Origin: Candidatus Nomurabacteria bacterium RIFCSPHIGHO2_02_40_30
GTDB taxonomy: Bacteria > Patescibacteriota > Minisyncoccia > Phycocordibacterales > UBA9973
Direction of reading: 5' to 3'
Assembly (NCBI GenBank): GCA_001785445.1
Contig: MFTV01000010.1
Coordinates: 101,566-165,565, forward strand
Length of the DNA: 64,000 nucleotides
The notes under the pieces are model-generated. The model was not told the origin of the DNA. It did no database searches and saw only the letters and a program-made list of their open reading frames with translations. This document shows, piece after piece, positions 50,045 to 50,139 of the stretch. The stretch's first letter is position 1; each line of letters starts with the position of its first letter. Both the position numbers and the translations under genes were made by a program.

Positions 50045-50074
50045 ACTGCAAATATATCAGCCTTGTTTGTGAAA

Positions 50075-50089
50075 GTTAATTTTTTTAAC
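50075..50089. promoter_or_regulatory. GTTAA-N5-TTAAC palindrome, copy 1 (copy 2 at 56509-56523)
   Basis: Conserved at the same register in both 95-nt gaps between a lysine gene and an ACT gene. Confidence 0.55.
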
Positions 50090-50139
50090 GTTTATGTAAT
50101 AAATTAGACTTTTTGTAAAATCTGTGATATTATTAAACA

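Follow-up and report, generated by a model that had tools for sequence, protein, structure and literature searches.

Two intergenic regions of equal length in a 64,000-nt stretch of a Candidatus Nomurabacteria genome (Paceibacteria; Candidate Phyla Radiation, CPR), hereafter called the window, each separate a lysine gene (lysA or dapB) from a divergently transcribed gene for a small protein with two ACT domains (ACT1 or ACT2). As judged from sequence comparisons, both regions are probably copies of a compact two-way promoter module that accompanies a Paceibacteria/Nomurabacteria family of ACT proteins and that includes a candidate operator. To our knowledge, almost nothing is known of transcription control in the CPR (Patescibacteria), and very few regulators are recognisable in these small-genome bacteria, which cannot be grown alone. 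The module would constitute a concrete, deeply conserved cis-regulatory unit, described down to the single base, in which two leaderless promoters are fused and combined with an invariant candidate operator, and which is tied to a gene family, that of stand-alone tandem-ACT proteins with a novel N-terminal domain. A bidirectional promoter/operator region of this kind would offer a rare experimentally testable handle on CPR gene regulation.

A conserved block shared by the two intergenic regions

The regions lie between lysA and ACT1 (positions 50045-50139, gap A; the lysA ATG, at 50044, directly abuts it) and between dapB and ACT2 (56477-56571, gap B). A preliminary description of the sequence had given both as 95 nt long and had reported three shared elements: a hexamer at positions −12 to −7 of each ACT gene (TATTAT, 50128-50133, and TAGAAT), a 16-nt box identical at 15 of its 16 positions, and a palindrome, GTTAA-N5-TTAAC (50075-50089 and 56509-56523), located 18 nt upstream of the box in each gap. 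The coordinates and strings held when rechecked (Table 1). The fixed register also claimed for these elements applies to the 18-nt spacing between palindrome and box, but not to the distances to the start codons, which differ by 2 nt: the box occupies −32 to −17 of ACT1 and −30 to −15 of ACT2, while the palindrome is separated by 30 nt from the start codon of lysA and by 32 nt from that of dapB. Gap A is therefore the sum of 30+15+18+16+16 nt and gap B that of 32+15+18+16+14 nt; since the 2-nt differences compensate, the equal length of the gaps is partly coincidental. The palindrome pattern matches twice in the 64 kb, against 0.16 matches expected, and none of 100 shuffles gave two; elsewhere in the window there is no match to the box with fewer than 3 mismatches. 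A weight matrix derived from 74 homologous sites scored the two window sites at 25 and 24 bits, the next best reaching 15.7. The shared boxes are not explained by chance.

Phylogenetic footprinting was performed on 75 loci fetched from species-representative genomes. The region upstream of the ACT homologue aligned without gaps to a single block in 74 of the loci, the conserved part being ∼65 nt long in these species-level genomes. The family block reads (A)AGTTAAnTTTTTTAACATT, ∼10 variable nt, TTT, three poorly conserved positions, ACTTTTTGTWAAATCTGTTARAAT, 6-8 nt and the ATG. Across the 74 loci the columns of the box carry 1.3-2.0 bits, mostly 1.5-2.0, with little or no variation in the letters AC-TTTTT-GT. 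In pairwise comparisons the mean identity was 0.89 in the box, 0.76 in the palindrome block and 0.33 in the upstream flank; in the coding sequence it was 0.90 at second codon positions and 0.44 at third positions. When gaps A and B were aligned with each other, two conserved islands (AAGTTAAnTTTTTTAAC and ACTTTTTGTnAAATCT) stood out amid unconserved sequence. The earlier statement that sequence outside the boxes is not conserved is right for the linker (0.30 identical), but the conserved block is larger than the boxes then noted and runs AAGTTAAnTTTTTTAAC(A/G)TT, ∼10 variable nt, TTT, three poorly conserved positions, ACTTTTTGTWAAATCTGTTARAAT. The similarity of the two regions returns in the 5′-ends of the coding sequences, because ACT1 and ACT2 are paralogues.

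This paralogy, and the similarity that continues into the coding region, would suit the view that the shared boxes are functionless leftovers of a duplication of the gene together with its upstream region. However, the two window copies retain 94% identity in the box and 90% in the palindrome block, against 47% at third codon positions and 30% in the linker, and the same boxes recur in 74 further genomes and on 91 metagenome contigs. The leftover explanation is thereby already refuted, and we give it practically no credence. These comparisons agree with the earlier proposal of selection rather than recent duplication: on the sequence evidence, the boxes are under purifying selection and a recent duplication is excluded.

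A scan of metagenome contigs with a degenerate form of the box, based on sequence alone, found 99 sites, 91 of which precede an ACT homologue, and the window contains only the two. The exact palindrome was found in 62 of 156 distinct promoter sequences and is then always exactly 18 nt from the box. In distant members of the family, whose identity of ∼30-40% was estimated by eye rather than calculated, TTTTGTAAT or TTTTGTTA is retained, and a TGn-TAnnnT follows ∼10 nt later at a distance of 5-9 nt from the ATG. Co-variation is seen between columns −1 and 9 of the box (window positions 50107/50117 and 56541/56551), the combinations being GAC...GTA in 68 cases, AAC...GTT in 47 and mixed in 20; the AAC...GTT form makes a perfect TAAC-T5-GTTA dyad. 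This co-variation could reflect a clade effect or coupled half-sites.

Predicted divergent promoters and the palindrome

Each gap can be read as two back-to-back sigma-70-type promoters with weak −35 elements, three of the four having a TGn-extended −10, from which leaderless mRNAs would be made in both directions (Table 1). On the minus strand the predicted order is TTAACT, 17 nt, TGn-TAnnnT, 6-8 nt and ATG, and this promoter would drive lysA or the dapB operon; on the plus strand, a weak −35, a 17-nt spacer that includes the box, a −10, 6 nt and ATG would drive the ACT gene. On the plus strand, promoter scans returned TAGACT-17-TATTAT, with a TG ahead of the −10, and TTGCAA-17-TAGAAT; on the minus strand they returned TTAACT-17-TATATT, again with a TG. 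The family consensus of the ACT −10 is TGT-TAGAAT, and that of its −35, TTkn(G/A)A, is weak.

Table 1. Coordinates of the predicted promoter elements and of the genes in the window (position 1 is the first nucleotide of the stretch)
Feature	Position	Strand	Remarks
Extended −10 TGA-TATATT, lysA promoter	50051..50059	-	Ends 6 nt before lysA ATG; leaderless mRNA implied
−35 TTAACT, lysA promoter, equal to left palindrome arm	50074..50079	-	17-nt spacer
Palindrome GTTAA-N5-TTAAC, gap A	50075..50089	.	
T-tract and right arm TTTTTTAACGTT (consensus TTTTTTAACATT)	50081..50092	+	Between the two −35 elements; 1.2-1.8 bits/column, 74 loci
Weak −35-like TAGACT, ACT1 promoter	50105..50110	+	17 nt from −10; promoter scan
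Box ACTTTTTGTAAAATCT, −35-proximal and spacer segment of ACT1 promoter, candidate operator	50108..50123	+	Core AC-T5-GT invariant in family
Extended −10 TGA-TATTAT, ACT1 promoter	50125..50133	+	Ends 6 nt before ATG; 2 nt downstream of family consensus place
Extended −10 TGT-TATCCT, dapB promoter	56485..56493	-	Ends 8 nt before dapB ATG (56476)
−35 TTAACT, dapB promoter, equal to left palindrome arm	56508..56513	-	17-nt spacer
Palindrome GTTAA-N5-TTAAC and conserved ATT, gap B	56509..56526	.	
−35-like TTGCAA, ACT2 promoter	56537..56542	+	17-nt spacer; promoter scan
Box ACTTTTTGTTAAATCT, ACT2 promoter spacer, candidate operator	56542..56557	+	Window uniqueness, family conservation, weight matrix
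−10 TAGAAT, ACT2 promoter	56560..56565	+	Ends 6 nt before ATG; reads TAT-TAGAAT
lysA, diaminopimelate decarboxylase	48863..50044	-	Pfam Orn_Arg_deC_N and Orn_DAP_Arg_deC; N-terminus has FGTPLYVYE
ACT1, 219 aa	50140..50799	+	Four-helix N-terminal domain (1-66), then two aspartokinase-beta-like ACT domains
dapB-dapA-dapL-asd-aspartokinase (catalytic only)-dapF string, transcribed from gap B	50946..56476	-	
ACT2, 221 aa, ACT1 paralogue	56572..57237	+	5 nt before rpsU (S21), then ybeY, ftsA, ftsZ

The assignment of the −12 to −7 hexamers as −10 elements is supported by the distance between the −10 and the start codon, which is 6-8 nt in 58 of the 75 loci (6, 6, 6 and 8 nt at the four window promoters), and by the similar layout of 29 of the 52 gene starts in the window, where a TAnnnT ends 5-9 nt upstream of the start codon. 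Since a −10 located only 6-8 nt from the ATG leaves the mRNA leaderless, the transcripts of the gap promoters appear to lack a leader, and leaderless transcription appears to be the norm in this Nomurabacteria genome. Window starts of this type often have a TG at −15/−14 and an A-rich segment at −21 to −16, with little −35 signal; examples are those at 16218, 17953, 19201, 36822, 40849, 45167 and, on the minus strand, 48825. The promoters of a DoxX-family gene (19167-19203) and of purE (36790-36824) share a nearly identical stretch of ∼30 nt, TTTTGTA(G/A)AAAATGCTAGAATAA(A/T)TTTATG, that resembles the ACT box. Both were considered as box sites on account of this likeness, seen by eye (TTTTGTAAAAATGCTAGAAT), and were set aside: the better-scoring of the two, purE, came only ∼12th when sites were ranked by the weight matrix, and the resemblance is not significant.

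The leaderless sigma-70 promoters with a TGn motif of Actinobacteria and Deinococcus show the same 6-8 nt spacing of the −10, no Shine-Dalgarno sequence, a weak −35 and genome-wide use. What distinguishes the present case from them is that two such promoters are fused back to back within ∼95 nt and that one of the spacers is invariant in the family. No account of leaderless transcription in Patescibacteria/CPR was found in the literature searched. A Bacteroidetes-type promoter (TTTG / TAnnTTTG) was dropped from consideration, as the source is a Nomurabacteria genome and sigma-70 geometry fits. Comparisons made by eye with sigma-54, extracytoplasmic function (ECF) sigma factor and FliA promoters, and with CodY (10/15 matches), LexA/Cheo, TyrR and ARG boxes, yielded none that fits; TGTAAA, half of a TyrR box, does occur in the 16-nt box, but its partner half-site is absent.

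This promoter anatomy changes how the shared elements are to be understood. The box, presented earlier as an element of its own, is real and conserved, but rather than forming a distinct site further upstream it appears to make up the spacer and the −35-proximal segment of the core promoter of the ACT gene. The palindrome, presented as a dyad operator, is likewise real and keeps its 18-nt register, but the left arm doubles as the predicted divergent −35. Of the 75 loci, 59 have a minus-strand TAnnnT at a distance of exactly 17 nt from TTAAC(T), where the per-position background is 2.2%, and this −35/−10 register holds regardless of which gene is the divergent one. Among the 156 promoter sequences, changes confined to the left arm numbered 27-28 and those confined to the right arm 10-23, while compensatory changes numbered 1-5. 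As the arms vary independently, selection does not maintain a hairpin, and the palindrome has, at least in part, a composite nature. The right arm (TTAACATT) and the ATT that follows it are strongly conserved, although they lie outside any promoter hexamer. Immediately next to the divergent −35 is an A6 tract. The right arm with its ATT (TTTTTTAACATT) may be an UP-like A/T tract or part of an operator. Second promoters, using either the right arm TTAACA as a −35 or the reverse strand inside the box, were sought and rejected, there being no conserved −10 at the right distance.

It is doubtful, then, that GTTAA-N5-TTAAC is the operator of a dimeric transcription factor that serves both units in response to lysine-pathway metabolites, with the box as a second operator. 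Such an operator would agree with the constant distance between exact palindrome and box, with a right arm and ATT conserved where no promoter hexamer accounts for them, with the joint retention of palindrome and box in the extra module copies described below, and with the inverse arrangement TAAC-T5-GTTA found inside the box in approximately one third of the sequences. It fits poorly with a left arm that serves as a −35 at 17 nt from a conserved −10, with arms that change independently and an exact form missing from 60% of the promoters, with a locus (L027) in which the box is kept and the palindrome is absent, and with partner genes that are mostly not lysine genes.

Nor is the block at all likely to act as RNA, be it a riboswitch, an attenuator or a small RNA. 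The palindrome could form a 5-bp hairpin, and some other lineages have an insertion after the −10, either ∼78 nt of structured leader or a short upstream open reading frame (ORF). However, the block is upstream of the −10 elements and the flanking genes point away from it, so that it is not transcribed from these promoters, and one-sided arm changes (up to 28 per pair) far exceed compensatory ones. No match was found in Rfam for positions 48000-58000 at E values up to 1. The earlier remark that the leaders are too short for an L-box lysine riboswitch (RF00168), which would precede lysine genes, is sound as regards the lack of room and of an Rfam match in the gaps, and is to be corrected in that there is essentially no 5′ leader at all. 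A small ORF within the block was also rejected, stop codons being present in all frames.

On the minus strand, at 50087-50092 and 56521-56526, the conserved AACAT reads ATGTTAAAAAA (MLKNLT...). Where the ATG of this reading is in frame, a longest-ORF rule adds 15-20 spurious codons to the divergent gene, through the palindrome; the same reading was seen in loci L002, L003, L006, L008, L029, L036, L051 and L067. Wrongly assigned N-termini in databases are likely to arise in this way. Annotators should be aware both of this false lengthening and of the mostly leaderless nature of the genes here.

Constraint on the ACT-side spacer

The two promoters of the module differ sharply in their spacers. 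That of the divergent promoter carries 0-0.5 bits, whereas that of the ACT promoter is invariant; the former acts as an internal control, which indicates that promoters in these genomes do not in general have an invariant spacer. Since the box is as conserved as second codon positions while the divergent spacer is free to vary, we infer that the box carries an additional sequence-specific function, most likely that of an operator. The invariant spacer core, AC-TTTTT-GT-W-AAAT, probably together with TTTTTTAACATT, would thus have a second role, for which the binding of a regulator is the best candidate. A protein placed on this core would cover the ACT core promoter and adjoin the divergent −35; from such a position at both promoters it could autoregulate the ACT gene and co-regulate the gene opposite.

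Several points weigh against this interpretation. The −10 of ACT2 has no TG of the extended type. The downstream half of the box, AAAATCT, fits the A-rich region that generally precedes TGn in this genome, and therefore not all of the conservation of the box needs an operator. A second −10-like motif, TG-TAAAAT, lies within the box and could be an alternative promoter. Finally, the module also occurs in extra copies that no ACT gene follows, and these are left unexplained. These were found in loci L005 (2611-2669), L017 (2917-2975), L031 (2939-2997), L042 (∼350-402), L073 (1739-1767 and 2919-2977), L027 (3573-3685) and L156 (∼150-211). They comprise the whole palindrome-box-(−10) module and are located where a convergent gene (cysK-like, lysA or dapF) has its 3′-end; in L017, L031 and L042 the stop codon of this gene falls inside the −10 of the module. 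They may be antisense promoters, relics of rearrangements or recombination hot spots.

The second −10-like motif leads to an explanation that does without a dedicated regulator, and which appears improbable to us as a full account, although it does not exclude an operator. According to it, the box owes its conservation to TG-TAAAAT, an overlapping element 9-10 nt upstream of TGT-TAGAAT that provides a choice of start site: from one start a leaderless mRNA that can be translated would arise, from the other a short leader that cannot, while the T- and A-tracts would be UP elements. The resemblance of the tandem motifs (TGTAAAAT and TGTTAGAAT), the presence of TTTTGTAAT ∼10 nt before the real −10 in distant relatives, the extended −10 type and weak −35 of the promoters of this genome, and the abutment of the A6 tract on the divergent −35 are all compatible with it. 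However, it leaves unexplained the invariant A and C at columns 0-1 and the run of T; in one third of the sequences the first hexamer is TTAAAT, a poorer −10; and no other promoter in the window has such a tandem at a comparable score.

If the box is an operator, the ACT protein is the sole candidate regulator in sight: its tandem ACT domains would sense an amino acid, and its basic N-terminal domain might make contact with DNA. A scan of eleven small ORFs of the window against Pfam revealed no helix-turn-helix family, and weight-matrix scans of the window gave no further box or palindrome sites from which a regulon could be drawn. Autoregulation of the ACT gene through this novel helical domain is possible. 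More tentatively still, and with the balance of probability on the other side, the proteins of ∼215 residues made of four helices and two ACT domains may represent a new family of amino-acid-sensing transcription regulators in the CPR that bind AC-T5-GT and perhaps the TTAAC arms. Were this so, ACT proteins would autoregulate and would control whichever amino-acid gene (diaminopimelate (DAP)/lysine, aspartokinase or cysK-like) is placed divergently, and the Patescibacteria would thereby gain their first defined operator-regulator pair and regulon.

The arrangement is reminiscent of some known systems. As in the E. coli lysR-lysA pair, a small gene and an amino-acid gene diverge from a short gap in which dyads overlap both promoters. 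The LysR-type T-N11-A dyad expected in a divergent gap is in fact contained in GTTAA-N5-TTAAC, but it is a non-specific feature. The ACT proteins differ from LysR-type regulators in having neither the HTH_1 nor the LysR substrate domain of Pfam, their partner gene varies widely, and their binding to DNA is a prediction. TyrR, GcvR and NikR-like ACT regulators likewise combine an ACT module with a small extra domain and are associated with amino-acid genes; the ACT proteins, however, gave no sequence match and no significant structural match to the DNA-binding domains of these regulators.

The ACT proteins and their genomic neighbourhood

Neither ACT1 nor ACT2 matched a Pfam family above threshold, the only hit being a weak one to ACT_7 (E 0.003); ACT2 also weakly matches the C-terminal regulatory part of monofunctional aspartokinase (TIGR00656). 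The two proteins are 66% identical in amino-acid sequence. Candidatus Nomurabacteria is the recorded source of an identical sequence to ACT1, and 524 homologues were found; most of these carry no source name, and the few that do are labelled as CPR/Patescibacteria bins (Nomurabacteria, Paceibacterota, Liptonbacteria, Staskawiczbacteria) or simply as 'bacterium'. No description of the family was found in the literature searched. In the AlphaFold (AF2) model of ACT1 (pLDDT 89), the four-helix N-terminal domain is followed by the two ACT modules, and a Foldseek search matched residues ∼75-219 to 5yei_B, 3ab4_F and 2dt9_A (E ∼1e-8 (2e-8); target-normalised TM 0.68-0.69). ACT1 therefore shares the tandem ACT fold of aspartokinase beta subunits (those of C. 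glutamicum, T. thermophilus, M. tuberculosis and P. aeruginosa), although sequence identity to the solved structures is only 8-15%. It differs from them in being a separate gene, present as two paralogues, rather than the product of an in-frame start inside lysC, and in its extra 66-residue N-terminal domain, found, among the matches listed, only in the ACT family. A profile search with this domain yielded 420 clusters at 50% identity; among the best 150 of the 420, almost all are proteins of 205-235 aa that begin with the domain, and full-length aspartokinases are absent. The possibility that the domain is a remnant of the aspartokinase catalytic part was accordingly rejected, since within those best 150 matches it occurs only in proteins of ∼205-235 aa with this one architecture.

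Analysis of the genes facing the ACT gene does not bear out the earlier view of a lysine-specific control region, as the module goes with the ACT gene and not with lysine genes. The immediate divergent neighbour in the 75 loci was a cysK/CBS-like gene in 24, the commonest case, dapB in 8, the catalytic aspartokinase gene in 4, lysA in 2 and dapF in 2; the remaining 35 loci have other genes (small ORFs with a Shine-Dalgarno sequence, prfB, etc.). Some DAP/lysine gene lies within 4 kb in 27 of the loci. The family is nonetheless recurrently linked to genes of cell-wall precursor (DAP/lysine) and cysteine-type metabolism. The arrangement is suggestive of a local transcription factor, for which the classical layout is that the regulator gene carries an operator of its own and the divergent targets can be exchanged. 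A role as the regulatory subunit of a split aspartokinase is equally well supported, by the tandem ACT fold, by an aspartokinase confined to its catalytic domain and by the loci in which an ACT gene faces that kinase gene or dapA; the two roles are not mutually exclusive. Distant members adjoin further genes of the aspartate family or of amino-acid metabolism, namely dapA (L175), an M20 peptidase gene (L180 and L183), a GNAT acetyltransferase gene (L180 only) and genes for an amidase and an asparaginase (L185).

The gene order in the window is greA(-), lysA(-), gap A, ACT1(+), dapF-aspartokinase-asd-dapL-dapA-dapB (all -), gap B, ACT2(+), rpsU, ybeY, ftsA and ftsZ. The aspartokinase gene (51737-52690, minus strand) codes for 317 aa comprising only the catalytic domain; the enzyme looks split, with a catalytic-only kinase gene and the tandem ACT module in two separate paralogous genes. 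The site of ACT2 ahead of rpsU-ybeY-ftsA-ftsZ is kept in loci L028 and L048, which have no lysine genes there. Synteny suggests that this position is probably the ancestral one and that ACT1 came in together with the lysine/DAP genes, both window copies being old paralogues.

In some lineages an insertion of ∼78 nt separates the −10 of the ACT gene from its ATG (L064, L070, L055, L047 and L020, ∼3925-4000; also L015 and L022, ∼3925-4000). One type of insert contains a hairpin, GUCCCGUAC...GUACGGGAC, with an alternative pairing to AAAAUUUUAGUACUGGG beside the AUG. The other contains a leaderless upstream ORF of 13-25 codons (MTHSI...GHG[DE]), the stop codon of which overlaps the ACT start (ATGA) in L015, while in L022 the ORF ends at a TAA before the start. 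These inserts had no match in Rfam. Further upstream in the window, positions 46453-48348 (minus strand) code for an unusual protein in which a class II aminoacyl-tRNA synthetase (Asp/Lys/Asn type) is fused to a C-terminal DUF2000 domain.

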